Shown here: one piece after another, positions 20,635-47,600 of the stretch
Numbering within the stretch: the stretch's first letter is position 1
Layout of the letters: the number at the start of each line of letters is the position of its first letter
Source of the DNA: Bispira polyomma
Lineage: Eukaryota
Assembly (NCBI GenBank): GCA_965649765.1
Contig: OZ287755.1
Coordinates: 27,280,001 to 27,344,000 of the forward strand
Length of the DNA: 64,000 bases
Direction: 5' to 3'
Notes under the pieces: model-generated
What the model was told of the DNA's origin: nothing
What the model saw: only the letters and a program-made list of their open reading frames with translations
Database searches by the model: none
Translations under genes and position numbers: made by a program

Positions 20635-20653
20635 TTATGGCCACTGCAGGTAC
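20635..20653 (-). CDS. TSR gene last coding exon (GYLQWP-stop)
   Basis: Strong acceptor atttttcttacag|G, phase 2 compatible, TAA at 20637-20635, AATAAA downstream. Confidence 0.65.
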
Positions 20654-23600
20654 CTGTAAGAAAAATCAGTTGATTGTATAGTAACTCATAATAACTGGCT
20701 ATGTAATAAAAATGTTTCAATTTATCAAATTTTGTTTTATATGTAAAAGCTTCATAAATGCACAGCAGTCATTTAAATGTTAAACTTTACTACATACCTT
20801 TAAAAATCTAGCAATGATTTTTAAGACGAGACCATGACCATATTGTTATGTTTAGTCCTCTAGGTCAAACACTTACCCACAGTTTTTGACATAACAGGAA
20901 ACAGACGTGGTATCACTGCCAGGACATGAGAGATAGGATGGCTTGCAATTAGGTGGCACTTTACACACTCTCTTGCGGTATCGCTTACCCTTTTCCTTAC
21001 ATCCCTGACATGCACCATATGGACCCCATTGATCCCATTCTGTGGCAGAATAATCAACAATAGCTCTCATCAAATGCATGTCAAGATGTGCATGGTGTCA
21101 TGCTCTGATATTCAGTGTAGTGGTAAATAAGACATGTTATCAGTACAATAGATACCAGACTATATTATTTATTATTATTATTCTTATTATTATTTTTTAA
21201 CACGCTTTATTGATGCTAAGCATCTTCTAGAGTGCAACAGCAGAATAATTGGTTCAATCATTAAATCCATGGACATTGCAAAGTCGAATATATATTAAAG
21301 TACCTTTATATAACATTATACTCAATGTTTTATTGTAAAGCGCTTCAGACCATTGGATAGGGCGCTATACAAATCTTATTTATTCTTATTTATCCTTCAA
21401 GGCCTAATATTCTAGTTTGCGAGAGTGTAATTGTAGGTAGTGAGAGTGTGCACTCACTTGGACTGCAGCAGTTGGTACAGGTCTTGGTCAGCCTACTCCC
21501 ACCAGTGCAATCTGGGCTAACATAGCCACACTTGTTCTTACAACTTCTTGTCTTAACATGGTAACAGTCGGAGTTACAACCACTCCATCCACTCCAGTCC
21601 GACCAATAGGAGCCTACAACATGTATGAGATCGTATTGTGTTGTCTCCATCATTACACATATATGCAGTGATTACTGTGAATCATGAACTCTATCCATTA
21701 TTTTGGGCTGCCCCTAAGCAACCAAACCAGGTGTTATATCAAATACATTTGATTTTCAGCAATGCAATCTAAGATCACATTTTTTTAACCTTATTAAGAT
21801 GTACAGAGAACAATGTAAAATCCTGATTTATGGATCAATTGTGATCAATCTTGTATCACTACAATCACTTTTTGATGTACATATAGTGGTGAATGCATAG
21901 TCAATATGATTGACATATATCTTCAAATGTATTTGCAGGGAAATTTTTGGCATAATTTAAGAGTTGGTGACCATAGATAGGAGTCTTATGTTATTTTAAA
22001 TATTTGTATTGGTGTTCAATTCAAGTAAACTGATTATTTGTATACAATACCATAACAAGGTCTATTCTGATTGCTCGGTCCAATGCAGATTTTTGTTGGA
22101 CATGTACGACAGGTTCTTTTTCTATACTGACTACATGATGACTGGTAATTGGCACAGTTACTCCACTGACCCCAGCCATTCCACGATGGATCTGGAAAAA
22201 TTACAAAGAATTTTTAACCCGCTTTGTATAAAAGCTAATGCTTTTGTTGAGGTAAAGTGTCACATGAAACTTACTGCAGCAGTTACCACAGGATTTGGTC
22301 TCCGTATTTACACCATAACAGCCCGAGCTTAGATAGCCACATTTATTCTGACATGTCCTGGTCCTGACAGATTTACAGTTAGCAGTGCAAGCTTGCCAAG
22401 CTGTCCATTGAGACCACATAGAACCTGTAAAATAATGGATAAAACATGGATGTGAAATGTGGGCTCTTTTGTCATCACTGACAACACGCATTACTTGTAT
22501 AGGGTTCGACTCACACTTGTTCTTTAAACTTTTCTTTTCACTGTATATATTTGTTTTTTCCAAACTATATGTATAACCTTGAATGTCTTCAGAAATAAAT
22601 AATAGCATGATTAGTTTAGCATACAATTTAGTGTTTGTTGTTTATACCAAAATATTTTTTAAAAATGCCATCAAAATTTACCTTGTTGAATATATCATGA
22701 AAATTCGTTATCTACAAATGGTACTTGGAGATAATGCAAGATAATTTTTTTTATTTCTGTACGACCAGTATCACGACAACCTGCAACATAAGCTAAAGTT
22801 AAGATGTATAGGCTGTAAAACAATCAGTGTGCCACATGTGTATAACGGAATAATGAATTATAAAAAATTCTGAGTTCTGCTTCAGAAAGCCTCACTTACT
22901 GGAACAAGGTCTATTCTGATTGCTCGGTCCAATGCAGATTTTTGTTGGACATGTACGACAGGTTCTTTTTCTGTACTGACTACATGATGACTGGTAATTG
23001 GCACAGTTACTCCACTGACCCCAGCCATTCCACGATGGATCTGGAAAAATTACAAAGAATTTATAACCTGTTTTGTATAAAAACTAATGCTTTTGTTGAG
23101 GTAAAGTGTCAAATGAAACTTACTGCAGCAGTTACCACAGGATTTGGTCTCCGTATTTACACCATAACAGCCCGAGCTTAGATAGCCACATTTATTCTGA
23201 CATGTCCTGGTCCTGACAGATTTACAGTTAGCAGTGCAGGCTTGCCAAGCTGTCCATTGAGACCACATAGAACCTGTAAAATAATGGATAAAACATGGAT
23301 GTAAAATGTGGGCTCTTTTGTCATCACTGACAACACGCATTACTTGTATAGGGTTCGACTCACACTTGTTCTTTAAACTTTTCTTTTCATTGTATTTATT
23401 TGGTTTTTCCAATCTCTATGTATAACCTTGAATGTCTTCAGAAAGAAATTATAGCATGATTAGTTTATCATACAATTTAGTGTTTGTTGTTTATACCAAA
23501 ATATTTTTTAAAAATGCCATCAAAATTCACCTTGTTAAATATATCATGAAAATTTGTTATCTACAAATGGTACTTGGAGATAATGCAAGATAATTTTTTT

Positions 23601-26600
23601 TAATTTATGTACGACCAGTATCACGACAACCTGCAACATTAGCTAAACTTAAGATGTATAGGCTGTAAAACAATCTGCTTCAGAAAGCCTCACTTACTGG
23701 AACAAGGTCTATTCTGAGTTTTGTCCCCATAGCATCCAGTAAGTGAAGAGTAACAACCACTACAAGTCCTTGTCCTAGTTTGACGACACAGGACTCCCTG
23801 TTTGGTACAACTACCCCATTGACCCCACTGGCTCCAGGATGGATCTGTTTGTAAAAAAAAACAATAGATGTTAAATTTATCGTACTGTTTCTGTAGAATC
23901 AAGTTTCTAAAATAGTATCATAAGCATGGTTTCACCTACACAAATGTATATTGGAGGAGGTGTTCAAAGTAGAGTATGGTATAAACTAATTTGATAAAAT
24001 TCTAATTTTTTTTAATATTCTCACTAAGTACTTTGTATTTACATCACCTTAATAGTTAGTTTATTACAAATAAAAGTATCCTACTACAACGAGACACACT
24101 CTTCTGCACCTGTACAACTGCACTGCTCACATGATACACAGGTACGTGATTTGGACGGTTTATCAATATTTTCCAATAAAGATAGCATAATTGACAATAT
24201 AAGAATATTTAGGATTTAATTTAAGTATCCATTAAAACTTACACATTTTTTAAAGGAATTGGCAGCATAAATTAAGAACTAAAGTGCCACAGGGTCTCGA
24301 CTAGCAGGAGTAACTCTAAAACATATTTTGTGGGTCACTTGCCTCGTTTAAATAATTGTGAAATATTTATTCACTGTACAGGTCATGCACACATATAACG
24401 TTAGTTTTTAGAAAGTTAAACCAGCTAGAGAGTAAGCTTTAAAAGAAAGTAGTCTTTATATCATGTTTGTATTTTGGAACATTTGTTTAGTCATTATATT
24501 GCTCTTATTAATACACATAACAGCTAATGCTCCAGTCACACAGCCCTCACAACAGCTGAACATATCACAGAGCAGTTATGGGACTCTTAACAAGTCGGGC
24601 ATATTAACTATGCTGGACATAGTTAATGTTCCATATTACAAACATAATATAAAGACTATTTTCTTTTAAAGCTTTCTCTTTAAAAGAAAAAAAGGCCTGG
24701 AGGACGACGAGGATGATGATTATGAGGGGGTCAGCAAGAAAGCCAAGGTGACCGACCAACTGTCAGAGGAGCAGGAGGAGCACTTGGTGGACATCCCCAC
24801 AGCCTATGTTCTATGACCAGTTGCTCCGGGACTTCAAGAACAGGGCCAAGAAGTCCCAGGTGCTGGTCAGACAGGGAGACATCATGGGGCTCACTGTTAA
24901 GTTGCATTAATATCTAATTACAACTGTAACTGCATGACCGAATCAACACATGGTTCAAGTCCATGCGGACTATATATGGCAAGCTCAAGAAAAAGTCCTG
25001 CCAGGCAACCAAGGCTCAAACTGCGTGCCAGTCATGGACACTCCGATCATTTCAATTCCTCGAGGCACATCTGGTTGACTGTTCGGAGAGTCGTAGGCTG
25101 GAGATGGGGCCTCCCCCGCCAAGCTTTGATGACCTGGAGGACAATGACAAGCTCTCCAATGTTGCCTCCTCAGCTCCTTTTGGGGTCAGGGCGAAGTCAA
25201 GTCCCACCCGCCCCACCCTTTCCAATTCCAGCCAGACTGGTCAGCTCAGCACCAGCGCCGCTCAGGGTTCCCGACCAAAGCCAGGAAAGGGTAATAGGGA
25301 AATAGACGATGCCATAATACAGCTGGCTGACCATTTCGCCACCTCCCAATGCAATGATCTACTGCAGTCTATGGTGACTGTGGCCAACAACCCCAGACTG
25401 TCGTTTTACCACTGGATAGGACTGGAGTCAGAATTTCTCACTGGCCTGCAGTGGGATGATTATATGTAGGAGACTTTTCAGGCCATGATTTTTCTCGCAG
25501 CCAATGGTTTGGCTTTCCTCTGCTCCGCCTGGCCAAGCATCGGGTTCATTTTCTTTTAGACCACCAAATATCTGGTCAGCACCACAACAACAGCTGAACC
25601 TATCACAGAGCAGTTATGGGACTCTTAACACGTCGGGCATATTAACTATGCTGGACAGCCTGCTGGGGCAACGGACACCTCAAGCTCAGCCCACTCAGCC
25701 GGCACTGGAGATGTTGCGACCTACATCATATCAAGTGACCAAAGTAGTGGTGGCCACACACAGCAGTACAAGGGGGACATCGGTGGTGGTGGTGTGACTG
25801 TTATGTCAGGGCCAAGGCCATAGTATCCTGTGGTCTCACATAACACTAGGTCATAAAAAATCCCAACTTCAAATACTAAAATGTTGCGATATAAGGTGTA
25901 TACCACAACATTTATGATCTAAAATTTACACATGGTCAAGGTAATGGTCTCCTTTTGGTCTCCTGTTGTCCACTTGCTAGCTAAAGATTCTTCTAAAAGT
26001 CATGTCCTAATAGTTTTACGAAAGACAATGAGAACACTGAAATAACCTTCTGCGCAGAGGCAATATATTGTATAAATAATTCACCTGGAATGATTGATTG
26101 ATTGATTTCAAAAAATAAAAGTAAAAATCACATAACAACATATAGTCACAGTCACTTAAAGCATGTCTCTCTGCCATGGTACAGCACCAACATTATTTAA
26201 TGTTTTAAGTATATCCTCTGTCTCTTGGCCCTGCGCGAAAACTGTGTGGGACCCCTAACATTCTTTCAGTATGCGAAGATAGCGTCATCCTTTCAGGCTC
26301 CAGGCACAAGTTAGCGATCGTTCCCCTCATGGTCCATTGCTGCATTCTGCAAGGCTGGATACATTGTACGCATTAAATTGTGCAAGCAAATGCATGCCAA
26401 CACAATTAACTTAACAGTTTTTGGGTCTTGTTGAAGAGTAGTCAGCAGGGCGCGGAACCTATTGGCAAGAATACCAAAGGCATTTTCAACAATCCTTCGA
26501 GCACGAGAAAACCTGTAGTTAAATATTATCTCTTCATCTGTCATGTTGCGTTGGAAGAATGTCTTCATCATGTAGGGGCCAAACCAAAGGCATTGTCACC

Positions 26601-29600
26601 AATGAAGACGTAAGGTATGTCCTCATCATCATGTGGAAGTGGCTCAGCCGGTGGTAGACCCAGTGTCTCATTATTCAGTTTTGTTTTTAGGTCAGAGTTG
26701 TTGTACAAGAAACTATCCGATGTAGAACCGTTGCCACCAAGACCTTGTAGTTGTGGTACACTGAGCCAGAGTTCTCAGGAGCATTGATTGCAATGTGTTT
26801 CCTGTCTCCTATCTCTGCACCATATTGTTCAACTATGGCCTCGCACGTCTCTTTCAAACACAGAAATGGTGATGTGAGGCACTCTGAATGCATAGCTCAG
26901 GCTGTGGTAGCTGTTACCAGATGTCAGGTACCTCAAGGTGATGGCCAACTACATACCAGGCTGTAAGGCAGGCCTCCAGTTGGTGTCCTTCTTGGTCAGG
27001 CGGGGGTCATCCTGTTCAGCAACTCATGAAACATCGCTGGTTCCATCCTGAGGTAGTTCAGAAAATCACCATGTGATTCTATCTCTAGCTCTACCATAAG
27101 GTTGTCATAGTCACCAAACTTCAGGCGCCTGCTGATCCAGGGCCTCAACCAGTACTGCCTTGCCCTCCTCCTCCTCCTGAGGTATACCAGCAATGGTAGG
27201 CCAGCTACCTGCTGCTGCTAACGATGTCTTCTCACACCCATGATTTGACCTGCTGCTGCTGGACCAACAAATGCCATTATTATAATTTATCTAAGTACTA
27301 TCTTACTACTGTCTTACTACTATTTAACCACTATGTTTACTGCTCAATAACTGATTTCATACTGATGACTGTAGTATTGGTACCAGTATTTATATCCAGA
27401 TCAATATGCTCCCCAAGGGGTTTGCGATGGACGTGCCACCAGAAAACGGCGACTAGTCTCTGAAAGTTGCATGACGATCTCAGACTAGATGCCGTCAACC
27501 GCACAGAGGTCTTTGCAAGTTGCTGACTATCGCAAAACTGGTCTCTACAGATCTCAGATGATCGCTACAAGCTTCAGAGAGCTGCTGTAGATCGAATGCT
27601 GGTCATCGCCAGAGTGGTAGGCGACCGGTGGCCAACCCCAAAAAGCTGAATTTAGGTGTGACTGCTACAAAAAAATCTTAAAAAGATCTTAGGTAATTGC
27701 CACTGATCGGCCATTTTTCTTTAATTTCCAGCTTACAGCAGCTCTGCAACCGGTCGTGAGGGCTGTGTGACTGGGGCTTAAAACCTTCCATTTGACATTT
27801 AGTGTAATTGTAATTTTTTATTGGTTTGTTTTTTGTCAGTATATTTTGTGCCGTTTAAGTTTATTTAGTTTATGTACGATACAAATCTATATTTACTGCT
27901 ATTTACAATTTTAACATCAAAAGGACAACATCAAAAGGACAGTAAGGAATCTCGTTAAAAGGGAAAAATGATTTGGCCTTGCTGCATTAACAAAGGACCA
28001 ACACACACATATGATATTTGTTTTCCTCACTAGCCTGGCTGAGGAATGCGTGAATAAATAGATTGATTGGGGTTTAATACCAGTTTCTACTGATAACCCC
28101 CATGCATCAGCAAGTAACTGCCAACGTGCCCTCATAAGGATCTATGCAGTTTTAATTTAATTACATTTCTTTAGACTATCCTCAAACTTCTGGACTGTAA
28201 ATTTACAACAATTTTACAAGTTCTCTTTTGCAATAGAATATGACATTAAAGCGAAATGACATTACCCCTAACTAAATATAACTTACGAGTTCCCTTAATT
28301 TTGATATATTAAATCGAAGTGACTTGGGACACATTCCTCGAGTGAATGTTGATAACATCCCACGCTGATTACATCTCATCCTCACCTATTGTTGGCACAC
28401 ACACGGCCTGATACACCCTAAAGTACTAACCCCCACTCAAGTTGACACACATCACAATCATTAGTGCTAGGCCTTTAGGTTACCCCAACAGTCAACTTTA
28501 CTGTTAAAAGAGAAATACAATCGAGTATCTCCTCTGTCAAAAATTAAGCCCAGTTATTTCACAGATCAGCATCACTGTTTCATCGTATTTACACTAGCAG
28601 AAACAATGCCCTAGAATTAAAGAATTGTAATTGAATGAAATATAAGTAATGATTCATTGATCGTCTGATATTTGGCAGGTACGCATGTTTTTTTTAGTTT
28701 GTTGTCTTGTTTCTTGTCATTTTTATTTGTGAAACGTGTCCCGAGCTTTGTTCATGCTGTACATACTAAAGCTTTAACAAAATTAAATACTGCACACCGT
28801 TGTAACCCACCTGATGCCTATGGCCCCCTCTGGCCATATCACTCTGTTCTTGTTTATTTATAACTGTCCTTATGACATTATGAATTCTAAAGTATCCACT
28901 CAGTTTACCTGAGTAATTGGTACTTTTCAAAGATAAAAATAACTTCAAGAAATTATATCACAAGAGAGCTTTACTTACTGGAGCAAGTTCTAGACTGAGT
29001 ACTTTCCCCAAAACATCCAGCATGGGACGAGTAACAACCACCACAAGTCCTTGTCCTAGTTTGACGACACAGGACTCCTTGTTTGGTACAGCTTCCCCAT
29101 TGACCCCACTGGTTCCAGGATGGATCTGTTTGTAAAAAATAACAATAGATGGCCCACACCTAAGACATGTAGTGGAGGAACTGCTTATTGAAAAGATGGA
29201 AAATGGTTTCCGGGAGAGAGAAATTGACATTACTGTTAATATATGTAATAAAGATGTCAATACATTCCTTTACCAAAGATGTTGGAATTGAATCCAGATC
29301 ACAGGACTAATTTAGGGAGATTTGAATAAGTTTGAAGACTTCTTCCTCAGACAGTTAGAAGGTGGTAAAAGTGTTGCGTATAGTGGGTGGGTGTGGCGAG
29401 GTATGAGAAGATGACAAGCTAGATCTAAGTTTGGTAACTTTCTTCAAGAAACATTTACCAAAAATCTCAAGTCTGCCACTGTTTTGCATTCACCTAGTTT
29501 AACTGAAGAGGATTTCTAGAGTATTTTTTTGATTGAGTTCCACAAGGTCGTTGGGTTATCGCAGTTTTCATAAACAATGTTAGTGTAATGGTTTGAAAAG

Positions 29601-32600
29601 TTCAAGCATATGCGTTTAATAGTTTATACTGAGAGACATTAGTACTTTTGAACATATTGTGGGAAAGGCACTTTATAAAACCCCAAATTGTTATTGTCAC
29701 ATAGCCATACAAATATCAATGATCTTTGGATGTTTTTACCAAATTTCAACATTAATTGATATAAATTATAATTCTGCATTCCTAAATATTTTCAAGTGCC
29801 ATAAAATGTACAAATTAAAAAATACTCATTGAATGTTAATGAAATATTTTATAAGTCCTTCTTTTTGACAATTACATCAAAATTATAAAAAAATACTGTT
29901 AAACGTATACATAAATGTATATTTGACGTGGTGTTCAAAGTAGAATTTTCAAAATCTGCCCCTAAGCTTGTTTCAAAGTATGGAAAAACTTATTTGATGA
30001 AATTCTCAATTTTTAAAGTTAGTTTATTACAAATAAAAGTATCTTACTACAACAAGACTGCTGGTTACACACTCTATCTTCTACACCTGCACCACTGCAC
30101 TGCTTAATTCTGTCACATGACGCACAGGTACGTGATTTTGACTGTTTCCCGCCTCCACAAGTTTTGGTACAGCTAGTCCATTGTGTCCATGGGGTCCAAT
30201 AGTCAGCTTGAGAAAATGTTCAAATTATTGGATGCAGTTAATACCAGTCTCAATGACCGAACAGGCATATCATTACCTTTCTTCTTATTACAACTAGAAT
30301 TATTAAAACACTATATAAGACAAAATACTGAAAACAAATACAGGCATCTTCTAAAGTGCAAAATCATTGACAAAAATTTTGAAATTGTAGTCCAAAGCAA
30401 ATTCGTTATCAGGGGTTGACGTGGAGGAAGAAATCTATGGAGGGAAATCGAGGGTAAAGAGATGGGTCTTAAGGTTACTTCTTAAGTCAGAGGGGGTTCT
30501 CTGGGATCTTATATTGGTTGGTAACTTATTCCATAGTGTAGGTGCTGTAACAGAGAAAGCATAGTATCCAATCCGTTTACTGGTTCTGGCATCAGAGACT
30601 GAAATTTGGTTTCCCCTGGTAACAACAGTTTAGAGCTTTGTATGTAGTAACATTGAAAATAATGCGGTACTTCACAGGTAGCCAATGAAGTCTTTTGAGA
30701 AAATGAGTCGTGCTGACACATGGTCCCACACGGCACACAACTCTGCACAAGTGATTCTGGATTGACTGTAGACTTTGTAGCTGGAACTTCTTTAGTTCAA
30801 GAAGGAGAGAATTGCAGTAATCCAATCGACTGCTATGATTATGACAGTTTGATGAGATACAAGTTTATCCCTGTCTTTTAGTACAATTTAGTTTTGTCAG
30901 GATTAAGTTTGAGTTTGGCAAAATTCATCCAATCTTGAATGGAGTGGAGACATCTGGCAAGGATGCTAAGCTGATCTAGTGGATTTTTTTGCCAATAATG
31001 ATAGGTAGATTTGGGCGTCATTGGTATACATGTGATGTTTGATACTGAGTTTATTAATAACATAACTCAGTGGGAAGTGTAAAGAATAAATAGGAGGGGC
31101 CCTAAGACGGATCCTTTTGGTCATCAATTTTGATTCTTTTACTTTTGTTGGCAAGGCATGATGCAATCTAATCCAAGACGAGGCCTTCAATGCCAAACCA
31201 GATTCTTAAAAGATTCTCAAATGTCGTCTATTATATCAGTAGTTGTGCATTTTTTATCAGAATATTGTGTGCCATTAATGTTTATTTAGTTTATAACAAT
31301 CATATGTGCTGTATTTCGTCCAGTTTAAATTTATGATGTCCCTGAGTGGCCTTTATTAATTAGTTTTAACTTCACATGGTAGTGGATTTACAAGCAGTTG
31401 TATTTCAAGTGACACATATGGGGTATTGGTTGTTCTCACCAGGCTAGCTAATGTGTTACTTGAAAGAGAAATATCTCGATTTAAATTAATTTTTATATTC
31501 TTAAAACATTATATTACTATTTAAGACCAATCTTAGCTAATCATAATAAAAGAGTTATTAAGAAATATATGATTTGAAAGTGTATATTCTACAATATATT
31601 ACCGCTCATTATCTGTATATTATTGAATCATGTAAACTGCTTCACCAGTATACTTTACACACTAATTATTTTAAAATTATACAATTTCTCAAAATATTTT
31701 GTAATTCAAATTCTTCTTACATAGATACTTACCATTTTAAAATAAATAATGTCATCCAACCAACTGACCCAAGGAATAGGAATGTTTTATGTACCTTAAA
31801 GATAGAGCTGTGGGTGCACAACTGTCTATAATGGGACAATTGGAAGATTTTAAAACACTTGAAGGACACCAGGTCAGTATTGGTTTTCCAATACTCAAAA
31901 AAGAGTTGTGAATGAGAACAATTTTATCGGGAAAAGTGTTCTCTACAAAAATTCTAGAATCAGCCCTAGATATCTGAGGGACACACACTGCAACCAAACA
32001 GTTAATTTATCTTTATCAATTTGACCCAAAAATATAAAAAAAGAATATTCCTATGATTACAACTAAAAGAAGAAATGTGTAAATTCACCATCCAGCGTTT
32101 TCTGTAGCTGTAATGGTAAACCAAACTTGATGTACTTCATAAGGACGACTCCTCATCACTCTACCAGTAGAAAACCACGTGGATACAGACTTTATACAAA
32201 AAGCATATGTGCAAATACAACACACATTTATGGCTGAAAGATAAGATGGGTGGCTGCAATGGAATCGACCTTAATCGTGTCACTATTATGCCAGTACATA
32301 TCCTTGACATCATTTCTCCACCTTTTGTCCTATTTAAATAGTATATCATTGCTCAATATGTGAAAAGACAATTGTCTTCATTGACAGATCTTTCAAAGTT
32401 ACATTTTAGTGCAGGAATTACTACCAGTTAAAGAGACAAAGGAAAGTGTAATAAAATCCAGAAGGATTAGCCTCTTTTCCTATTAAAAAATTGGGTGTCC
32501 AAGTATGGATTTCACCTTTCACCTAAAGCCGAAGCCAATAAAAGACTAATAAACAAATGTGGCACTTTAGCTAAAGGTTCAAAAGGTACATTTGTGAATG

Positions 32601-35600
32601 GGCCTTTTGCTATAGGTATTTTTCAAGTTTCTAACCTTAAAACAAAAAGTTCAGATCTTCTATATTAGAGTACAAGGTCTTAAGGTACAGACCAGTTGAA
32701 CAGTTTTGAATCAATTTGGAAAGAACAGCTACTAGACAAAATAGATAAGTGTGAAGATTTTCCCAGCGTTATGTATCTGTTTACACTGTTTGTCTGTCCA
32801 TGACAGGAGGACAGGGGGAATATATACAAGAAGTTTGTTGTGTCTTGTTGCAAAAATATCTACCATTGGTACCAAATTTTAAACTAGGTGAAGAGGCTGT
32901 TTGAACTGACTGACCTTCCGCCCCCCCCCCCCCCCCTCAATATGTGCCAATGCCAGGATTCTCCAGGCCAGGACACAAGGTTCCAACGAGTGGGTTCCTT
33001 GTATTAAGACTAAAGGGACGTTTTCCTAAAATTTTGTAAAGTGTTTGAGAGCTAGACACTTCTTTAAACTTATTTATGTGTACGTTTCTGTGATGAAACA
33101 CTCTGATCGACTGTATAATTATTCAGGTATTTACCCAGTCTTTCGCTAATGCTGCGGTCAAACTGGCCTTGCGTTTCGATTAAGCACAAAAAAATGGCTG
33201 ACGTAAGCTAAACGTAAGTAAATGTAGGCAAAACATGCGTAAGATGGTACCTTAAGTTTAGTTATCTCCTGTTTTTAAAGAAACGTCTTAATTTTTGGAC
33301 TGTTCAAAATTTTTTGTATTTAGCCGTTTGCTAAAAATTTTCCAGAAACGGGTGGTATAACTTAATGTGTATCTGATATAAAGGACGGGAGTAAAACGAA
33401 CTATACTTACAAAAAATATGAAAAGCGAGGAGAAAGAGAATGAAACGGGTTTACAAACATTAAAAACGAGACCGAGTTTAGAAACGTTGCTAAAGTATTT
33501 CTAATACGTGGCTAACGAGGCTGACATATTATTAAAATAAGGCAAACAAGTTAAACATAATTGAAACGGCTATTAAAACGTATCAAATGCGTGAACAAAC
33601 GTGAACAGATGCGTACTGAACGTGTACAAAACAGCCCATATATTTGATTTTTGCTATGTTTCCTGATTTTTCCACGGTTTTTCAGTTTGTTTTTTATGAA
33701 AAAAAAACATGTAACGCAAACGTACTCAGTGTGACCACGGCATAAAGCATCTAGGAACAACAGAAGGTTGTATTCCAACGTATGCAGGGCTGACCCATGT
33801 GTGACTGATGGGGTACACTGGACCTAGTTCCAAATAGATGTGGTGACACATAAAATTCACCTTTTATGTTGGATTTAGTTCTGATCTTAAGTATCAGACC
33901 CAACAACTGAAAGAGTAATATCAGCTTCTTCTGTAGTGTTTATATCCTTCTTTAATTTTTGGTGGAAGTAACTAAAAACAGTAACAAGACAATGGCAAAT
34001 TAAAATGCCTTGAGAAAAAAAACTGTTATTTTCTCCACTACTGCTATAACTTCTATAGTGCGCTCAATCCTGAGTGGTAAACTGGAACAAATGTCCCTGT
34101 ACCTGCCTTTTCTGGTTTTGGTACAAGAAAAAAATGTTTTTTTTAGTGAATAACCTTCCTTGAGAAGAGCTACAATTCTTGGATGGGCATTTATTTGTCC
34201 AAATATCTGTCAAAACGGCCTGCATGATATGTTGGTCAGTCACTTTGTCCTATTTGTGTTAGCTTTGCTGTAGATATAAAGGTGAATTCTCGCAACCGTT
34301 CCTGAGATAACATTTGGACATTTCCCTATACAAAGCTAAATTCGACCTGCAACTTTAATTTCTATGCTCCTTTTCCATTTTTACTGTTGCTTTCTCGACA
34401 GAATTTTAAACCAATTTTTGTGGTTGAGAATCCGAATATTTTCAAGTCGAACACACAGGGGCAAAAGAAGCAAAGGACTTACAGGTCGATAGAAGTCAAG
34501 GAACTGACCCTTCTGTAATAAAGGATGAGCTTGAAAAATGTCTGATGTACCAAGCCCCTTAAATTTCCATATGTTAATCATGTTTGCAGAAGGGAACAAA
34601 TACTAAAGGTGCCACCAAAGACTCAACATCCTGGACTTCTAAACTGAGCCATTTGTCAATAGTATCCATCTAATTAGGGCTGGGTTCAGTGTCTCTTTTC
34701 CAATGGAGGACTGATGCCTGGACTGTTAACTTGTGAAAACCCACCTATCTCTGCTGAATGCCTGTCATCATCAATGACAGGTTCATCATAAGCACAGGGT
34801 ATTGAGCAGACTTTCTGGTTCCGACCATTTCAACCCTGCTTACAGTCACTGGATTGATGTTAAACCCATCATATTATTTATATTATGAATTTTTAGCGCG
34901 CTTAATTGATGCTAGGCATCTTCTAAAGCACAACAGCAGAATCATTGGTCCAATCATTAAGTCCATGGACATTGCAAAGTAATAAAGGCTTACATAGTCC
35001 CAAGTGTGATGGGCGATGGACAAACCAATAATGAGCGAGTGTCTTTATATATGCCTCTTTTGGTGGTGGATTATTCTGTCCCATATATATATGTATAGGT
35101 GTGGACGCGCTGGCCTGTACTCAAGCTTCAAAAAATGTTTGTCTTTGTTTGGCCAGTTGGTTGGATGACTCCAACATATAGCACTCATAGAAAATGGCAA
35201 GTACATCTTTGTAATAAAAAGTCTGCACATTATCTTAGTATTAGTATATTAGTAGTAGTATTAGTATTTGATTTATTTTGTCCTGCAATGTATGTATGTG
35301 GTTGTCTCTGACTCTAAAAAACAATACATTTCATACTTTATATAAACATGTTTTCTGGACCCGATGTACTATCTTTACTAAGAAATATATCAGAAGTTTT
35401 GGTTTATTGTTTATACAAATTAATATTTAAAAATATAAGTTTGATATAATAATAATTGTAAAACCAAGTATATTTGTGTAGCCTTTCTACTATCTTTGAT
35501 AAACACGCTCCATGGGTATCTAAAACCCTTCCCCCAACAAACCCCAATAAATGGACCAATCACAGAGGCTAAAAGACACAAATGCCAACTGGAGCGTCAA

Positions 35601-38600
35601 TGGTGTCGTACCAAATGCTTGTTCGACAGAAGCCGTTACCGTATTTCCCCAAGCAACTTCAACAGGCTGATATCTAGTGCCAAAAGAAAGCACAACGACT
35701 ATATCAGCAGTGACAATCAAGACAATCCCAAAAGGTTATGGGCCTCCATAAACAAAATTTAAAATTAACATTAACTGAGTGTGTGTTTTTTTAAGGTTCA
35801 ATGTCTTTCCACAAGGTGGGCACTAACTTTATATACTTGACAAGTGAAGAATGTTAACATTACCCAAGTGTGTTTCTTAACGTCTAATCACTTTCCACTG
35901 GATGGAAATTGACTTTATAAAATTGACAAGTGAGGAATGTTAACATTAAATGAGGGCTTGTTTTTTAACATCCAATGTCTTACTACTAGATGGGCATTAA
36001 TTTGATATCATTGGCAAGTGTAGAATGTTAACATTAACCAAGTATGTTTTTAAAAACATTCTGTGTAATTTTACTGGATGGGCAAATGACGCACAAATAA
36101 CGACTTCATATAAATTCCAGTATGCTCTCGATTCTGTTTTTACTGACAAATTACATCCTTTTTTCAGTTTGACTTTTCAAGTGAAAAATTAAATTAACTT
36201 GTACGAATTCTAATCTTACTAATAGATTAACAGCATTGGCCATTTTTTTAAGTGTTATATTTGTATGGCACTTACTTTTGATGTATTATTTAGCATGTCA
36301 TGTTTGAGGTATAAAGTATGGTATGTACATTGTTTTTGCAAGTTTATGTTTTATGTGTGTGTTGTTTTTTGTTGTTCCAAACTTTTTGACAAGACAGGGT
36401 AGTAGCATTATTTATCTCTTTGTCTGTGTTTGCTTTCTTTATGCTACATATTGTTCACTAAATTTTGTTTAAATTAATAGTAAATACAATGGAATGATTA
36501 CAGGATGTAACAAAACATGTCAGTATTGAGTTTTATTTCCGTTTAGAGTATGCGTAAAATTTGACGTATGTTGTGGTAACAGTCGTTAGGAGACTAAAAA
36601 TGTGTCTATGCCAGTGGGTGAAATAAATAAGTGTTGTATATTTGCATACAATGGGTGATATTCTTAATATATTTTGTTTTAATACAAAAGGCTTAGGTGA
36701 TAAAAGTAAAAGATAAACTATTTTCTACTGGTTTAAAGGGATGGGACCTGTATTATTCATAATACAAGACTCTCATTCATCATGTACCACTAAAAACAGT
36801 GGAGAAACCAGTGGGATGGTACAATTGAATTTTCTCATGGTACCTCAAATAGTAGAGGAGTTGCAATATTAATATCCCCTGGCATAGATACTAATATGTT
36901 TGATCAAAAGAAGGACAATTTTGGTAGATTTTCACTGCTAGATTGTACAATATCAGCTAAGAGATATATACTTAGTAATGTGTATGCTCCTACAATAGAT
37001 AAAACTCAGAAACAAAAGATGTATGGGGAAGATTAAATAAGCAGACTTCAAAACCATGTTGGTGGAAGCTTTGTATTTGAGGGTGATTTAAACATAAATC
37101 TGGATAGCACACATGATACGAGTATCTTTTGTAAAAACTCAGGTTATATAAAGCAATTGTCACAGTTGATGATACTGTTAGATGTTACAGATATCTAGAG
37201 GATAAAACTCCCTGATACAATCCGATATACAAGATGAGAAAAAAACACATTTTGGCTTTTAAACAATCTAGAATTGACTATTTCCTGGTATCATATGGCC
37301 TAGAATACAATACAAAAGTTGTCAATATTCTACCAATTAAAATTCTGACCACATCCTACTAAAAATTTCCAAATCATGAGATTACATCGAATATATATGA
37401 TAAGAACTGAGTCTATTACTTTTTCAATAAAGAAATGTAAAAGGAACAAAATTGAATTTGAAAATTTAGAAAAACGGCTGATTGAACTAGATGATTGAAC
37501 TAGATAAAAGGGCACAATACAAATATGGATAAATCACAACCTAATGTCGAGACATATCTATGTAATGTCGATATTCCCAAAATATCTGATAGAAGTAATA
37601 CTCTTTGTGAGGAAACCATTACAGAAGTTAAAAAAGCTGTATATTGTCTAGCCAATAATAAAACACCAGGACCCGATGGAATACCTTGTAAATTTTGCAA
37701 GACTTTTTGTACTGAAATAGGTAACCATATTATTATGCACTCAAACCTGTAATTGATAATGTTTGCAGTATACAACAGTTTCTGTTATGTTTCATGTAGC
37801 AATTGTGCTTATAATTTCATGATCGCTTTTGTTATTGTATGTTACTTTTGTCATGTATCCTTTTTCTTATATGATTTTGTAAGTCTTCTATGTCAAAAAG
37901 AAATTTGTAAAGCTCCTTGTAATGTAAAAATTTGTAAAACCTTTATTTCAATGTAGTATAGTACCAATTGATAAAAAGGTCTTTTGTACGAGAACAACTA
38001 AAAGGGTTTTTGGTTTGTAATTGTATATTATTGTATTGTATAATGTTTTGTATAACTGTCTGTACAATTATTTGTTTTGAATGTCTATACCTCCTAAAAC
38101 ATAAAAAATATTCTCCTTCGAACATCTGAGAAAGTTCCCCTCATAAATCACAATTTTAGCGGATAGATTTGGAAAATTTTATTGATAATATCAGCAATAT
38201 TTGTGACGTTTTTTTAACGATGTATCATCTGTCCTTCAACCCCAGGTTATAAGGTTTCTAACCTGTTCCATTTCTGCAAACTTTCCGAGTAGGATGTTCT
38301 GAAACTTATGAAATCCTCTCCTATTAAATATTGTGAACTAGATCCTATCCCAGCTGTTATTTCAAATCAATGTCTCGATATTCTAGTCACACATAACCAA
38401 CATATTAAATTTTTCTCTTCGGGATGGTATTTTCCCAACCTGTTTCAAGACTGACAATGTAACTCCCTTGATAAAAAAACAGGTCTTGATCAGAACCAGG
38501 TCAGAAACTGCAGACCAGTGTCAAACCTCAGCTTTGTCTCTAAAGTTATCGAGAAAGCGGTAGCACAACAAATTTTTGATCACCTCAACCGACACAACAT

Positions 38601-41600
38601 CAAAAATCGTCACCAATCTGCTTACAGAAAGTTTCACTCTACAGAAAGTACCCTTTTTTCTATCAACAATGATATCAATCTTGCATTGGACCACAAAGAA
38701 ACAGTGGCCCTCACTGTTTTAGATCTCTCAGCAGCATTTGACACTATTGACACTCTCAAGCAGTGGTTTGGAATAAATGGCAGCGTTCTTGATTGGATCA
38801 GATCTTACCTTACTCTTAGAGCACAAGTAATTAAATTAGATGATCACCAATTATTTCCTATAAACCTACCATACAGAGTACCCCAAGGATCTGTCCTTGG
38901 GCCTCTACTTTTCACCCTTGTCACAAATAATCATAATTTTACGTGCACCTTAATCCAAACACATCAATCGGTGCCCTGGAAGTCCTTCAGAAATGCTTAG
39001 CAGATGTTCAAAATTGGATGGCGCTAAATAAGCTCAAGCTAAATCCTGCTAAAACCGAATTCATTGTTTGGCTCGGGCAGTCAACGTGCTGAACTGTCAA
39101 ATTCTTTTCCAGTAAACATTCTTCGGACACTGTTATTCCCAACTGATAAAGTGAGGAACCTGGCAGTTTTGTTTGGCAGTGATTTTTCATTTTCCAGGCT
39201 TGGATAAATGACTCGCTCGTGCTAATATCATATCCGTGACATCAAAAGAATCTGAAACCATCTGTCAATGGACACTGTGGCTAACGCCATTGTGAGCAGC
39301 CGCCTTGACAACTGCAACTCTCTTTTGTTTTGAGTAAACAAGTCACAGATTAAAAAGCTCCAATCCATTAAAAACTACCTATGCAGGGTGATTTTTTACT
39401 TGGGGGTCGTACAGACATCACTTCTTACCTAAAAAATTACACTGGCGGCCTATTCACTCTCGAATTTTGTTTAAAATTCAGGTTACCACTTTTAAGGCTG
39501 TAGTCACTCAACTGCACTTCTACCTTGCTTGCCTTCTCTCTTTCAGTAACCGTAAGAGAGGCAACAGACTCTCTGTTTCTTCAGTCAAACCCATGAGGAA
39601 GGCCGGATCCAGAGCTCCAATCCTTTCTCCATTGCAGCTCCCTTGTTATGGAACAGTCTCCAAGTTGACCTCAGATCAGTTGATACACTCATCGGTTTTA
39701 GGAAAAAGCTTAAAACCTATCTTTTTAACCTTGCCTACCCACTTTAGTTTCCCTCTTGTATGCTCCCACATCTTTCATTTCGATTCTAATGTTGCACTTT
39801 AGAAGATGCCTAGCATCAAACTAGCGCAGTAAAACTTCATAATAGAAAAAATAATATTGCTGCACTTCCTGTTATGGATCACTTTCTATTATCGATCCCA
39901 ACCACAACCAAGTAAACTCCGTTTTACTTGGTTATGTGACGCAATTTTTTGCTTGAGTGATAGCCATTAGATAGTATTATTTCAGATGCATTCTGATCAT
40001 ATTCTGCAAAAGCGCATGCAGTATGATGCTGAACACCTAACATTTACTTTAAGGGTAGTTTTTAGAAGAAGGTCATTCAATTAGAGGTTCTGCAAAGCTA
40101 TATAATGTACCCTACACTACACTTTGCGATAGAGTGAAAGGCAGAGTGCCAATTGACAACACAGGTCCAGGCCCAGCACCAATATTAAGTCAGCTAGAAG
40201 AAAGTAAACTTGCAGATCATATTCTGCTGATGTCTAGCATTGGATATGGCTATACCCGCGCTGATGTTATGGGTATTGCTGGGGAATATTTGTGTAGCAT
40301 GGGTAGGCGTGAAACTGGCAAACCATAATCGGACGAATAGTTTTATAATTTTTTGAAACGGTGGTCAGAGTTGAGGGTGATCAAACCAAGTGGTTTAGAG
40401 TTGATTAGGGCTAAAAGCACAACTCCTGATATCATTAACAAGTACTATGTTGAACGTCATGATATTTTTGACAAGTCTAGTTTGACAGACAAGCCTGAGT
40501 GTGTGTACAACATTGATGTAAAGGGTATTAACAGTGAGCATACACTTCCCAATGTTGTAGGTGGCCAAAATTTGAAACCCCAATCTCTGATTTCACCTAA
40601 AGGTGCCACAACTGTCATTGTATGCGGTAATGCAAACAGCATGTAAATTCCACCGTACTTTGTTTTCAAAGGTGTCAGGTTTCTTCCTGAACTTCTAAAC
40701 AATTCCCTTGCTAGTTCCGATGGAACTGTATCACCCACCGGATTGTCAAACAGTCAAACCTTCAATATATATCTTGATCACTTTTTAAGGTACAGCCAGG
40801 GTCAGGGTCAGTGATACTTTAATGGATAATGGATACAAAAAACATGTGTGAATCAAACTAATGAGTGAAAGAGCAACTAAAGAAGACATTGAAGTGGATA
40901 TCTTAAAATGGTAAGCATTTGCGTTATATTTGTCGGCGTTTTGATTTACCTCTACTACATGCCCTGCTTTCGGTGGATGATCCAGTACAGGAAGTGCTCT
41001 GTTTACCATTACATTTGTTTACACATTTTCTATTTTTCTGCTGATGTCCATTACAGGGACTGCTACAGGAGGTCCAGGTAGACCACTGAGTCCATTGGTG
41101 GACTGAAACAGTAAAATACAGGGCTAGTGAGTACAGTAGAACAAAATAGCAATTAGAATATGCCACCTCTCAATAAACACCACTTTTGAGGGTTCCCTTG
41201 GGTGGTCTTTTATATACAGGTTTTACTGTATATAACATAACATATACATTTGATATAGTGCAATTATATGTAGTAATAACATTTTAAATGCATATATAAA
41301 CATACACATTCTATTATCCGAATTATTTAAACTAAAATAATATCTTATTATTTTAGGAACATAAATTTGTTTTAGTTTGTCGATATTGCTACTCCTTCCC
41401 CATTGTTTTAAATAGTTAAAAAAAAAATTGATTTTGATTGGTTTATTTTTCTTCAGATAAAATGGTTGTGGCTTTCAAACAGTGTGGCAAATTGTTTAGA
41501 GAACTAGGAAACTAGGAAATGGAATGGGTAAGCTTAAGGACTTCTTCTGCAGGCAAAGTACGGAAGGAGGTAAAAGTGTTGTGTATAGTGGATGGGTGCA

Positions 41601-44600
41601 GTGAGGTCTCGGAGGATGAGGACAGGCTGGACCTCAGTTTGGTGATTTTTTTTGAGAAATATTCGCCAAGTCTGCCACTGATTTGCAGTCAGGAAGCATT
41701 ACCGTAGAAGATTTGTGGAGTATTTTCTTGATTGAATTCAACAAAGCATTGTTAAGAGAGTTCCAAAATGTGGTTATAGCAGTGGCTTCAATTGTTAACC
41801 ACAGTGCGGTACCTGCTCCTATTTATGCTCAACGTGTCTTAGCACCAGGTACATTCCAGTTTACTCCTAACGCGTTTGGTAAACCTGATTTGCTTGTTTA
41901 TAAAACCAGTATCAGGGTGTTAAGGATTTTTTTTGTTTGCTAGTGCGTGCCTGTCGAGTAATTCTCTGAGGGTAATAAAGTACTGATGACTAGGAGTTTT
42001 ATGTGGGCACTTTATGAAGTCAGAGTTCAAAATGTCAGCCTTAAAATCCTGGGCATTAATTACGTTTAGCCTTCGGATTTTTATATGTCTGTAGTTATAT
42101 TGAACTCATGGTGGTTGCAAAAGACAGTAGCAGTTAATTTGGCTGAAAACCACCAGGTGACAGTAATATGAAAAAAAAGACATAAATAGTCTGCCTAAAG
42201 ATCAAGAAGCACCAGACGCTAAAGTGTAAGAGCAGACATATTCTGGTGAGTGTGTGCAGTAACATAAAGGGTTATAGAGAACCACACTGCTTTGTGAGTA
42301 TTGCTGTAACTCTTACAACGCATGTTTTAAGTACAATATCGATTGCAATTTTCTGGGTAGCTTCATAGCCTGGGGACATTTGGAAGACGATTTTAACTGG
42401 GATTCAACTTGAAAAGTACCATTTGTGATTAAGGGGTTGGTTTTTCAAAATCATGAGGCTGCACAAAATAAAAGACTACTTAATTGGTTGTCAAAAAGGC
42501 CAACTGCTACATATGTCTAACCCCAGTTAAAATTTTAAATGTCTTTTTACAAAGGGTGTGCCAAGAATAAAAGACTTATTTCCAGACTTATTGGTTTACT
42601 ACAACAATTTGGATACACACCTTCTACTAGAACATGGTGTATTTAAAGATGGCCAGGGATAGCAAGAGAAATTCGGTTTTAGAAAGCTCAAGCCTAATTT
42701 GCTCTCTACGGACCAGAAGACAAAAATTTGTACCACTTCTTCAAAAAGAACATCATGGGTGAAAAGTCTATCATCTTTACCAGGTTCCACAAGGCTTGTA
42801 AAACCTTTTTGAGAGGAGAGAAAGTGTGCCAGATAATTGTGGGCTATGACTACAATATCCTGTCCTGATTGGTTAAAGATGAATGGATGCCCATAGGGTA
42901 TTTTGTCAGATAGGTGCCTTCATCAGTCACAAGACCAACAAGACAAAAAATTTTATCCGGCCCTATTTTTGGCACAGATTTGAAGGCTTGAATAACACTG
43001 TGTATATATATGATAGTTGATACCATCATAAATACAGATTCCCCTAAACATAACAAGCCTGGCAGAAGTATCCCAGCAGATTCATAAGACGCTTAAACAC
43101 ACTGAAGAAAAAGCCAAATATATCAGACAATGGGGTTACAAATTGGTTTCAAAGTGTTGCAAAGTTTTGTTCACTACCACTTACTGAGGCCACAGCAGTA
43201 TCCTTCAGGGGGTCCGAGAAGGAGTTCTAAACACCAGTAATAACTAAACCCTCGTAATACATTTATAACAAGATTCATCATACAACAACTTACTACCTCC
43301 TGGGATACAACCAGCTTTCGGAATAGGAGGTTATAAGACTTGAATAGAAGCATGTAACATGCACCTTAGAATCTAATTTAATGGAGATTAGGCGCTGTAC
43401 ACACTTGATTAGATTAGATATTACAATAGTGTTTGTTTTAATATTAAAAGTTTTAATACATGACATTTTACCTTCAAAGTCAATATGTAAATACTAAACT
43501 TTAACTTACCGTTTTTAAGATACTTCCTTGGGCATTTTCTAGTGATTTTATTTTTACCAGAACATTTCTTATCTGTGAATATAAATTATATATTTTTACA
43601 CACTGCTGATATACTTAGTAAATTGCATGATTAGTCATCAAACCAACAGCAAGTATGACAAAACGCTATCCATATATACTGACATATATATTAAAAAAGA
43701 GGAAACATGTTTTAATTAAAGACATACCCTCACCAAAGCATATTGCCCGATGTTGCATGTTGTGGAAAATATTAAAGACTAAACAATATTTTATACATCT
43801 TTTTCATTACACACTGAGTACTTCTCTTACTGATGAAAGTTTAAATTATTTAAAGATTTATTATTATGAGATAAGCTTCTGATGTCTATCATTGCCTCAC
43901 CTTCATGATTTTGACATTGCTGATCAACAATACACTTGCGAGTTTTGACGCTATTTTCACATGGGCATTTGGAATAGTCCCATCTGCTCCATTTTCCAAA
44001 GTAGGCAGCTGGTAAACAATAAACAAAACATAGTACTAGCTAATAAAATAGCCATTGCTGTATGAAATAACAGAGAACAGATGGAGCTGTATTGGTACAT
44101 GTACTGAGCAGATTCATTGTGGGAGTGGTGTCAGTGTCAATAGACCACTATCACAAGTCATTTATTGTTTACAGCACATTATAATCAACCACAGACAACC
44201 CCTACCTAAGACTGGGTGACTGCTTAAACTCCTACCTAAGACTAGGTGACTCTGCCCAAACTCCTACCTAAGACTGAGTTACTCTGCCCAAACTCCTACC
44301 TAAGACTGGGTGACTGCTTAAACTCCTACCTAAGACTGAATTATTCTGCTCAAACTCCTGCCTAATACTGTATGACTTTGCTCAAACTCATACCTAAGAC
44401 TGGGTGACTGCTGAAACTCCTACCTAAGGTGGGGTGACTGCTAAAACTCCTACTTATGACTAGTCTAAAGTAATGCTACTCAATTTTACATTAAAGTTAA
44501 GGGAAATGAGCTCATATTCTGTATATGAGGAAAAAATATACTAAATTGTAACTGGATAGTCACTTTTTAAGCTACTACTTCAAACTAAATCAATAGTTTG

Positions 44601-47600
44601 TGGGAGTGTGTAGCGCTGATGCCCAATTTTCAATATAAAATCCAGTGATCAAATCATATACTAACGTGTACAACAAGGTTTCGTGTTACAGGTTCTCATT
44701 TGTTTAGATGAGGCAGGATCTGATTGTCCAAGGCAGTCTTGATTATAAGGACAGGAATTGTCACAGGTTCGAGTTCTTGTCTGTGCTCCACCTCCACAAG
44801 TCTTTGTACAGCTGGTCCAAGCTCCCCAGTTCCTCCAATTGGAATCTGTACATCACAACTCAGTTAACGTAACGAATTCAAACTCTTACATGCCTAAAAA
44901 GGTATATCATCATACACATTTGAATGCATATAGTTCAACATATGACCAACACTTCATTTAAAAGAATAAATATTGCTGACATCACAGAGAAAGACATATT
45001 TATTTATCCTTCCTGGTATATGTGATCCAATACTGAAGCTTTGATTCTGACTTACATATCTTGAAAATGTTCTAGTTGTATTAGAGGTGCTGGTTAATCT
45101 GTCTTGCCAATGCTTGATCTACTTATCAGTTATATTGTTTCCCAGAGGGTAATTGAAGCCCTCATTGTCCAAATGTTATGGCAGTGTAATATTATACCTA
45201 TAGAAAGTAAAGAACTGGAACAGTAATTTATAGTATCAACTATGTTGTTCTCTTAGTGGCCACCGTTGCAATCATATGCTAAGTTCAATTCCAAGATACC
45301 CACTCTGGTTGAAGGCAAGGTAATATTTTGGAACATCTACCATGTTTCTTTTACACTCAACTAAAACTTTAAACTTGCTATTTATGTTTACCAAATTATT
45401 TAATTGCAAAGAAACCCACAAATTTGTGTTGAATGAGATCTTACAATAAGTTAGTCAATTTTACATTAAAGAGAAATGAACTGTAATTCTGTATATGAGG
45501 AAAAAATATACTATATTGTAACTGGATAGTCACTTTTTAAGCTACTACTTTAAACTAAACCAATAGTTTGTTGGGAGTGTGTAACGCTGATGCCCAATTT
45601 TCAATATTAAATCCAAAGTAATCAAATCATATACTAACGTGTACAACAAGGTTTTGTGTTACAGGTTCTCATTTGTTTAGATGAGGTAGGATCTGATTGT
45701 CCAAGGCAGTCTTGATTATAAGGACAGGAATTGTCACAGGTTCGAGTTCTTGTCTGTGCTCCACCTCCACAAGTCTTTGTACAGCTGGTCCAAGCTCCCC
45801 AGTTCCTCCAATTGGAATCTGTACATCAAAACTCAGTTAACGTAATGAATACAAACTCATACATCCCTAAACAAGGATATCACCACACACATTTGAATGC
45901 ATATAGTTCTATACACCTTGCCCAAGCTCCCAGTTCCTCTAATTAGAATCTGTACAACACAGCTCAGTTAACATAACAAATACAAACTCATACATCCCTA
46001 AACAAGGATATCACCACACACAATTGAATGCATATAGTTCAACATATGACCAACACTTCATTTAAAAGAAATAACATTTCTGACATCACAGAGAGTGACT
46101 TATTTAATTAATTTTCCTGGCATATGTGATCCAATACTGAAGCTTTAATTCTGATTTACATATCTTGAAAATGTTCTAGTTGTATTACAGGTGATCTAAT
46201 TATCAGTTTATTGTTTCCTGGACGGTAATTGAAGCCCAACTCTGCTCAAATTACTACCTTGGACTGGGTGACTCTGCTCTAACTCCTGCTTGAGACTTGA
46301 TGACTCTGTTCAAACTCCTACCTAAGACTGGGTCACTCTGGTCAAACTCCTGCTTAAGACTGGGTCACTCTGCTCAAACTCCTGCTTAATACTGGGTCAC
46401 TCTGCTCAAACTCCTGCCTAATACTGAGTCACTCTGCTCAAACGCCTGTCTAATACTGGGTCACTCTCCTCAAACGCCTGCCTAATACTGTATAACTTTT
46501 CTCGAATTCCTACCTATGACTGGGTGACTCTGTTCAAACTCCTACCTAAAGCTGAGTCACTCTGCTCAAACTCCTACTTAAGACTGGGTCACTCTGCTCA
46601 AACTCCTGCCTAATGCCATGGTCACACTAAGTATGTTTCACTTCCGTTTAAAATTTCACAAAAGTGAGGAAACGCAAGTAGAGCAAGTCATTATTTTGAG
46701 CGTAAACAAGGTAAGCCAAAATTATATCCAAGCCGCTTTTATTACGCTTTAGGTATGTTTAATGCGTTTTCTTCCTGTTACTTTTGTATATTGACACGCA
46801 TGGAATGTAATTTTTAGCTGCTGTTTGAACCATGCTTGTGACGCCCGGCAGGTTATTTATTATGTTTGAAAATATTTAATACCTTTTGGCCACGTATTAC
46901 ACATGTTTCCTTTACGTTTTGATTCCGCTTACTACGTTTAGGGTGTGTTTTTACGCTTCAGCTGCTTCCCCCATGCTTCCAGAATGCTTCAATTACGCCT
47001 ACTACCTCCCTGGCACTTCTATTTCATTCATTGCGTTTCTTACTCATTTAATACGTCTGGGACATTTCACTTATGCAAGGTACATTTTTACAGCCATTTC
47101 TGGGGGGTATATATAGGAGTTGATCGTACATATTTTCCTTTTTTTCGAATTTCATTCTACTGTTCACTGGATTTTAACAACTTCAACAATGGCTTTTAAC
47201 TTTGTATTGGAGCAATTCTAGGACCTGCAACAAGCAATGATGGTTCAAGTACAAGCGATGAGGAATATTTTTAATGCTACTCAATATTTGTGACAGGTAG
47301 GTATGGAAGAACAGGTAGGTATGGTCAAAAGGAGAAGGCAGAGGTCTATGCCCTTGATACTTAGGAGACCACTGTTTGGATTCTACGAGCACCTATTGCA
47401 GGAGCTTGAGGCCGAAGACTCTGCCAGGTTTAGGAATTTCACCAGGATTGATCCTGTCCTCTTTGGAGAACTGGTCCAACGCCTGCAACCAAGACTGCGA
47501 AGGAAAACAGTCAATTAAAGGGCTCCCCTAGAACCAGGTTTAATGGTGGCCATCACCCTGAGGTACATGGCTACTGGCTCGGACTACAGATATCTGGTCT

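Follow-up and report, generated by a model that had tools for sequence, protein, structure and literature searches.

How does a gene made of repeated domain exons gain two of them at once, and is the short identity found at such a join its cause or its scar? Both questions are raised by a tandem duplication in Bispira polyomma (contig OZ287755.1, positions 27,280,001-27,344,000; this 64-kb stretch, here numbered from its first base, is referred to as the window). The duplicated pair of units lies inside a single-copy gene on the minus strand, predicted to encode a chain of thrombospondin type 1 (TSP1) repeats. An earlier note on this DNA had described a very recent two-exon duplication produced by unequal crossover, and its claims are considered below together with the results that bear on them.

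A two-exon duplication joined inside an exon

The 17-mer AACAAGGTCTATTCTGA occurs at 22054, 22903 and 23701, where it forms the 3' ends of exons 15, 13 and 11, respectively; the sequence previously said to be common to these three exons is thus confirmed. Taking the copies of the 17-mer as arms, the order is arm, unit A (849 bp), arm, unit B (798 bp), arm, with the two units abutting head-to-tail. The partner of homology changes exactly at the 17-mer, on both sides, with mismatches immediately adjoining it. The segment 22054-22825 aligns with 22903-23675 at 97.0% identity over 773 columns, 22876-22919 is identical to 23674-23717 (44/44 bases), and the duplication is far above chance (BLAST E = 0). 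Since homology switches exactly at the 17-mer, the locus is a tandem duplication with its junction inside this shared coding stretch, as had been claimed. No mobile element was found at the 17-mer junction.

The offset of 849 bp, originally reported for exons 12+13 versus 14+15, holds for the pairs 12/14 and 13/15 only. Exons 11 and 13 are offset by 798 bp, because unit A has an extra 52 bp and a 1-bp indel when compared with unit B. The 52-bp segment, located in an intron (approximately 22826-22877), is present in unit A and not in unit B, has a 2-bp microhomology at its ends and shows no significant match elsewhere in the window, the rest of the genome not having been searched for it. The description of the introns as near-identical is supported by the overall match given above, but 20 of 506 aligned intron bases are substituted (4.0%, 95% confidence interval 2.4-6.0%), in addition to the 52-bp and 1-bp indels. 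The exons of the two units differ at 2 of 274 bases, both changes being synonymous.

The protein sequence of exon 13 equals that of exon 15 except for the last codon, which codes for Ser, as is typical of exon 11, and not for the Tyr of exon 15. Indeed, the body of exon 13 is that of exon 15, while its last codon, donor and intron flank are those of exon 11. Exon 10 has the same tail as exon 11, with about 16 bases of donor flank in common, and therefore exon 13 is the hybrid, in accordance with the chimeric exon proposed before. The predicted spliced frame is open both with exons 13 and 14 (754 aa) and without them (657 aa), so that the in-frame addition of two repeats also stands.

Contigs covering this stretch were available from three public sequencing runs (one study, at most two samples), and they bear on a possible assembly artefact, in which two haplotypes of one unit would have been put in tandem. 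The same seven contigs were found at 22840-22970 in each of the three runs, namely the junction piece, the exon-11 path, the exon-15 path, the intron in a long and a short form (52 bp present or missing) and two pieces shared by the units. Depth figures in the three runs, which are not to be equated with copy number, were 10, 99.6 and 11 for the junction path (22890-22932), 9.6, 90.2 and 10.6 for the exon-11 path and 10.9, 91.7 and 12.6 for the exon-15 path. Unit-specific and flanking pieces had similar figures (about 10, 90-100 and 11), and the pieces common to both units reached approximately 1.5-2 times this depth (20, 206 and 22 for the 44-bp piece; 15.6, 168 and 18.6 for the exon body). 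Haplotypes in tandem would give the reverse. Moreover, three separate paths through the 17-mer were present in all three runs, and the unique flank 21255-22083 carries no alternative-haplotype letters, the other letters fitting unit A, exon 10 or a repeat placed on the wrong copy. A divergence of 4% between the units could be allelic in a heterozygous animal, and no contig listed for the three runs spans both units. Beyond the 17-mer, the junction contig reaches only 13 bases in either direction, less than the 31+31 bridging rule requires, the run contigs drop rare variants, and the runs, all of one study, are possibly the source of the assembly itself. Even so, the three distinct paths and the raised depth of the shared pieces agree with the two genuine copies assumed in the earlier note, and an assembly artefact is unlikely; we would give it almost no weight. 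The equal depth of junction and flanks would fit a duplication carried by both homologues.

Table 1. Positions in the window of the duplicated units, the 17-bp copies, the exons concerned and the host gene
Feature	Position	Strand	Remarks
Unit A, 849 bp	22054..22902	-	In transcript order: exon-13 tail, intron, exon 14, intron, exon-15 body
Unit B, 798 bp	22903..23700	-	In transcript order: exon-11 tail, intron, exon 12, intron, exon-13 body
17-bp microhomology copy in exon 15	22054..22070	-	QNRPC codons
17-bp microhomology copy in exon 13	22903..22919	-	Duplication junction; 43-base contig 22890-22932 in 3/3 runs
17-bp microhomology copy in exon 11	23701..23717	-	
Exon 11	23698..23844	-	TSP1-type repeat, 6 Cys, phase 1-1
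Exon 12	23124..23273	-	TSP1-type repeat, 8 Cys, phase 1-1
Exon 13	22900..23040	-	Hybrid of exon-15 body and exon-11 tail/donor; TSR fold predicted
Exon 14	22275..22424	-	Copy of exon 12, 1 synonymous difference
Exon 15	22051..22191	-	TSP1-type repeat, 6 Cys, own tail and donor
52-bp intron segment, unit A only	22826..22877	.	Both forms are separate contigs in the runs
Exon 10	28979..29125	-	Older paralogue of exon 11, 18/147 bases differ; internal outgroup
Exon 16	21458..21613	-	Ancient paralogue of exons 12/14, 63% ungapped identity
Host gene (predicted)	20635..56109	-	18 exons, 754 aa; hydrophobic N-terminus, 14 TSP1-type repeats

The 17-mer as seed or scar

The reading we favour, with a probability of roughly 0.6, is one microhomology-guided step at a 17-mer already present in exons 11 and 15. 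The join site would have been the 17-bp identity, which both of these older TSP1-repeat exons carry at the 3' end in one codon register, and the join itself may have been a template switch or an end-joining between misaligned chromatids; the product of a meiotic unequal crossover would be no different. Joining at equivalent codons would copy everything between them and keep frame, donor and acceptor, and the protein would thereby have passed from 12 to 14 repeats. Frame and splice sites would be kept because of the homology of exons 11 and 15 and their common phase 1-1; throughout exons 8-16, exon length is divisible by 3 and phase is 1-1 (symmetric). Exons 11 and 15 have no identity longer than the 17-mer, and their next longest is 8 bases. 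In microhomology-mediated tandem duplication (MTD), a single-copy segment with short arms of 4-25 bp is converted into arm-unit-arm-unit-arm (PMC13167724). The same layout is found here, with a head-to-tail unit and a 17-bp arm, within that range of lengths, at both ends and at the junction.

The earlier note had named unequal crossover as the pathway and had held the growth mechanism to be readable in the DNA. The junction is indeed readable, but the pathway is not, since an identical product would result from template switching or from microhomology-mediated joining. Meiotic recombination usually needs far longer homology, in the order of some hundreds of highly identical bases. The long identical homology expected for a meiotic unequal crossover is missing between exons 11 and 15 (17 bp perfect, 8 bp for the next run, 55% identity elsewhere and unrelated introns), while the hybrid repeat expected at its junction is present as exon 13. 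As 17 bases are far below the usual meiotic homology, unequal crossover is no more likely than template switching or microhomology-mediated joining, and microhomology-mediated repair fits the locus at least as well. Exon shuffling, by contrast, places its breakpoints in introns (PMC1553488). Its symmetric phases are found at this locus, but the junction lies in exon 13 and not in an intron, so that this is not classical exon shuffling.

Besides the limits of the run contigs given above, several points weigh against a single step at a pre-existing 17-mer. Exons with 55% identity elsewhere would rarely share a perfect run of 17 bp (P = 0.015-0.03): the probability of a perfect run of at least 17 between exons 11 and 15 was 0.015 when the codon match patterns outside the 17-mer were resampled, and 0.031 by codon shuffling. 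An alignment of exons 11 and 15 with 75% identity, giving P = 0.21, was over-gapped and was replaced by one with a single codon gap. Within the 17-mer, four of the 17 bases are different in exons 10 and 11 (three codon-changing, one third position), and the one-step model therefore needs all four changes to have occurred on the exon-10 branch; for the same reason, the assumption that the 17-mer is older than the event, made in the earlier note, could not be upheld as a finding. In addition, the pathway is not deducible from the DNA product, several pathways leading to the same one, and the exon model is a prediction. Finally, MTD units are mostly much shorter than the present ones of about 800 bp, with 38-51% of them under 50 bp in PMC13167724.

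The 17-mer might instead be a scar and not a seed. The first join would then have taken place at a shorter exon-end match, and the 3' bases of exon 11 would have become those of the exon-15 type only later. Exon 13 would have served as donor in a conversion, or else an array of three units would have contracted at the 4 bp with which the 17-mer begins and which exons 10, 11, 13 and 15 have in common. This history finds support in the 18 differences between exons 10 and 11: exon 15 agrees with exon 11 at 4/4 of those inside the 17-mer and at 4/14 outside, the remaining 10 outside sites agreeing with exon 10 (4) or with neither, or falling in a gap (6). Outside the 17-mer, exon 15 is equally distant from exons 10 and 11 (55% each), and third codon positions of exons 11 and 15 are identical at 6/6 inside the 17-mer versus 19/41 outside. 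However, the 4/4 test (Fisher, p = 0.023) is circular, the 17-mer having been chosen for the identity of exons 11 and 15, and the divergence between exons 10 and 11 is raised over their whole 3' third (13/52 versus 5/95 bases elsewhere), beyond the 17-mer. Duplications are reported to be enriched at long microhomologies, which offsets the low chance probability (PMC13167724), and a scar needs two events. We regard it as possible, although doubtful.

A further history would start from three ancient two-exon units, the middle one having been overwritten by a long conversion or by expansion and contraction, so that repeat number would not have grown here. Exons 11+12 and 15+16 do form an older two-exon period, with 55% identity for 11/15 outside the 17-mer and 63% for 12/16, and other TSP1 arrays of this genome are homogenised. 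On the other hand, the older middle unit left no trace, there was little to pair on, as the introns of the different ancient units are unrelated (best local score 22), and more steps are needed than for one duplication. We thus consider overwriting very improbable. No orthologue or unduplicated allele that would show the arms in a single-copy ancestor turned up in protein and genome searches.

A single microhomology-guided join would place this locus beside systems already published. For the zinc-finger exons of piccolo b in teleosts, crossovers between short conserved coding motifs of repeated exons were proposed by Nonet 2012 (PMC3484663). In that gene too, domain exons were gained by unequal exchange at short conserved coding stretches, between adjacent or more distant exons; single exons were concerned, as inferred from cross-species trees (PMC3484663), whereas here two exons were duplicated and the junction is placed at 17 bases in one genome. 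Unequal crossing over between two exons of one gene was likewise proposed for the arrays of 90-bp leucine-rich repeat (LRR) exons of Tetrahymena, where exon-exon exchange also alters repeat number but thousands of genes and a link to retrotransposons are involved (PMC6564038), unlike at this element-free junction. MTD is depleted from coding regions (PMC13167724), whereas the present arms lie in homologous exons and the product is in frame and was kept. Multi-domain duplications inside repeat arrays are usual according to Bjorklund et al. 2006, who found in-exon and intronic breakpoints indistinguishable and the exact duplicated segments hard to identify (PMC1553488). In the present case several domains were also duplicated at once inside a repeat region, and the segment is resolved. 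The mechanism is therefore not new (piccolo exons, Tetrahymena LRR exons and MTD), growth of repeat proteins by such joins is known, and one case leaves the general picture unchanged. What is added is a base-resolved in-exon breakpoint in a domain-repeat expansion, such as proteome-wide studies could not resolve (PMC1553488), and a locus useful as a test of microhomology as cause versus scar.

Age of the copies and the encoded protein

The synonymous divergence between the units (2/53 sites, 3.8%) is about that of the introns (4.0%). Differences are fewer in exons than in introns (2/274 versus 20/506, Fisher p = 0.011), and no nonsynonymous change was observed, although the intron rate predicts 8.4 (P = 2e-4). 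From these counts, the two repeats appear to have been under purifying selection in both copies, or in their source alleles. Typical animal mutation rates are 3e-9 to 1e-8 per site per generation. If the copies were identical at the start, a divergence of 4% therefore corresponds to some millions of generations at such rates. If it was two diverged alleles that exchanged, a much younger event is conceivable, and the selection would then be older than the event. Most repeats of the gene are older than the event, and a very recent origin is possible, but the label "very recent" used previously is not sustained by units which differ by a 52-bp indel, by 4.0% in their introns and by two synonymous exon changes.

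The predicted 754-aa protein has 99 Cys and a calculated isoelectric point of 9.2, and no other domain and no later hydrophobic or membrane segment was found in it. Each exon around the duplication encodes one Trp/Arg/Cys repeat. Two TSP1 repeats of the gene are each split by an extra intron (exons 2+3, 53540-53288; exons 6+7, 44008-43510), the others being contained in one exon. The curated cut-off of Pfam PF00090 (TSP_1) was passed by three of the ten repeats tested (exons 4, 8 and 9); TSP1-type matches below the threshold were obtained with exons 10, 11, 12 and 17, and no Pfam match with exons 13 and 16 and the part-repeat exon 6. The W, R and C columns of the WxxWxxW/RxR/Cys motifs are nevertheless conserved in 10/10 repeats aligned, and the third Trp in 9/10. 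The structure predicted for exon 13 (pLDDT 83) was matched by Foldseek to TSR-bearing chains (C6, UNC5, semaphorin-5A and properdin; top TM 0.72-0.75, probability up to 1.0), with no match at E <= 0.001 for this 46-residue query. Properdin is a secreted protein made almost only of TSRs. The product of the present gene is predicted to be a secreted chain of TSP1 repeats, and its composition would be consistent with a secreted cationic adhesion, matrix or immune role.

In the genome assembly of the species, the duplicated stretch and both exon types are confined to this locus, and no paralogous gene was retrieved by genome searches with the stretch and the exons. Exons 11 and 12, searched against longer proteins, gave no orthologue, these searches being weak with queries of 48-49 aa. 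A profile search with exon 11 retrieved 56 generic TSP1 proteins, none of them orthologous, with best repeat-level identities of 36-53%. An oyster protein (XP_052706716.1) and two from brittle star (XP_072046311.1 and XP_072048495.1) likewise have tandem TSP1 repeats with near-identical units, but are not orthologues; the brittle-star proteins follow the same extra-cysteine logic as the Bispira polyomma gene.

This logic concerns the number and position of the cysteines. Seven Cys are found in the first repeat and seven in the last, and each of the 12 internal repeats has 6 or 8; the total for the mature chain is 98. All ten repeats aligned carry an extra Cys behind the RxRxC motif, which the first repeat lacks, and a spare C-terminal Cys, read from spacings as a terminal CC or as the lack of a sixth canonical Cys, is apparent in every repeat but the last. 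The extra Cys and the spare Cys at repeat ends lead us to predict a disulfide from each repeat to the next. If random, the fall of the two exceptions on the first and last of 14 repeats would have a chance of about 1 in 196. The same logic is seen in three brittle-star proteins, with the spare Cys elsewhere, whose runs open with a 7-Cys repeat devoid of the extra Cys. Against such staples, a spare Cys is still present in the closing repeat of two of these proteins, and the tail of the third contains an extra Cys. The duplicated pair, an 8-Cys and a 6-Cys repeat joined in register, would preserve the chain of staples. Tentatively, and with little confidence, a self-priming ratchet might be envisaged, in which exchanges leave perfect coding tracts that seed the next duplication, and, within an undescribed, stapled TSP1 subtype reached independently in a brittle star, only in-register joins keeping one spare Cys per repeat end survive. 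No publication on disulfides between TSRs or on copy-number variation of TSP1-only proteins was found among titles and starts of abstracts, a search which leaves most subscription papers uncovered, and the passages of PMC3632108 that were consulted do not mention thrombospondin. The predicted disulfide-stapled TSP1 chain may be a more original lead than the duplication.

Other TSP1 exons and duplications

At least 150 TSP_1 matches are present in the genome (150 of 537 candidates scored). Three TSP1 arrays were inspected, all on the sequence designated C10. One of them (C10:29163610-29193432) comprises 26 near-identical TSP1 exons with a spacing of approximately 1,141 bp and 97% identity, both its ends lying in introns. 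The C10 arrays also contain 8-Cys repeats, and a protein search with a C10 array repeat retrieved one protein, with ordinary 6-Cys repeats. The other duplication ends that were placed (exons 4/5 and the 26-copy C10 array) lie in introns; growth of exon arrays is routine in this genome, and the in-exon join is one case among the placed ends, the rest being intronic.

Within the gene, exons 9+10 were also duplicated, giving rise to a decayed exon-9 remnant and to exon 11. The decayed copy of exon 9, with several deletions, lies at approximately 24049-24200 (compared with 30013-30206) and was left by the duplication behind exons 10 and 11. None of the branches was starred in a protein tree of 12 repeats, which was left aside.

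Exons 4 and 5 represent a second recent duplication (44477-46237; 93% over 463 bases, ends in introns), and differ from each other at 2 of 180 bases. A 32-bp tandem repeat is found on both sides of it (44197-44461 and 46239-46613), and the acceptor of exon 4, together with the first codons of that exon, is repeated as a 131-bp tandem copy in the intron just upstream (45780-46040). Broken frames at 17874-18789, 38455-39000 and 54613-55047 are presumably fragments of a LINE (long interspersed nuclear element) reverse transcriptase, which they resemble. Intron 10 contains, at approximately 24690-25700, a G+C-richer dispersed repeat, probably a transposon, with some 40 scored genome copies at 69-84% identity.

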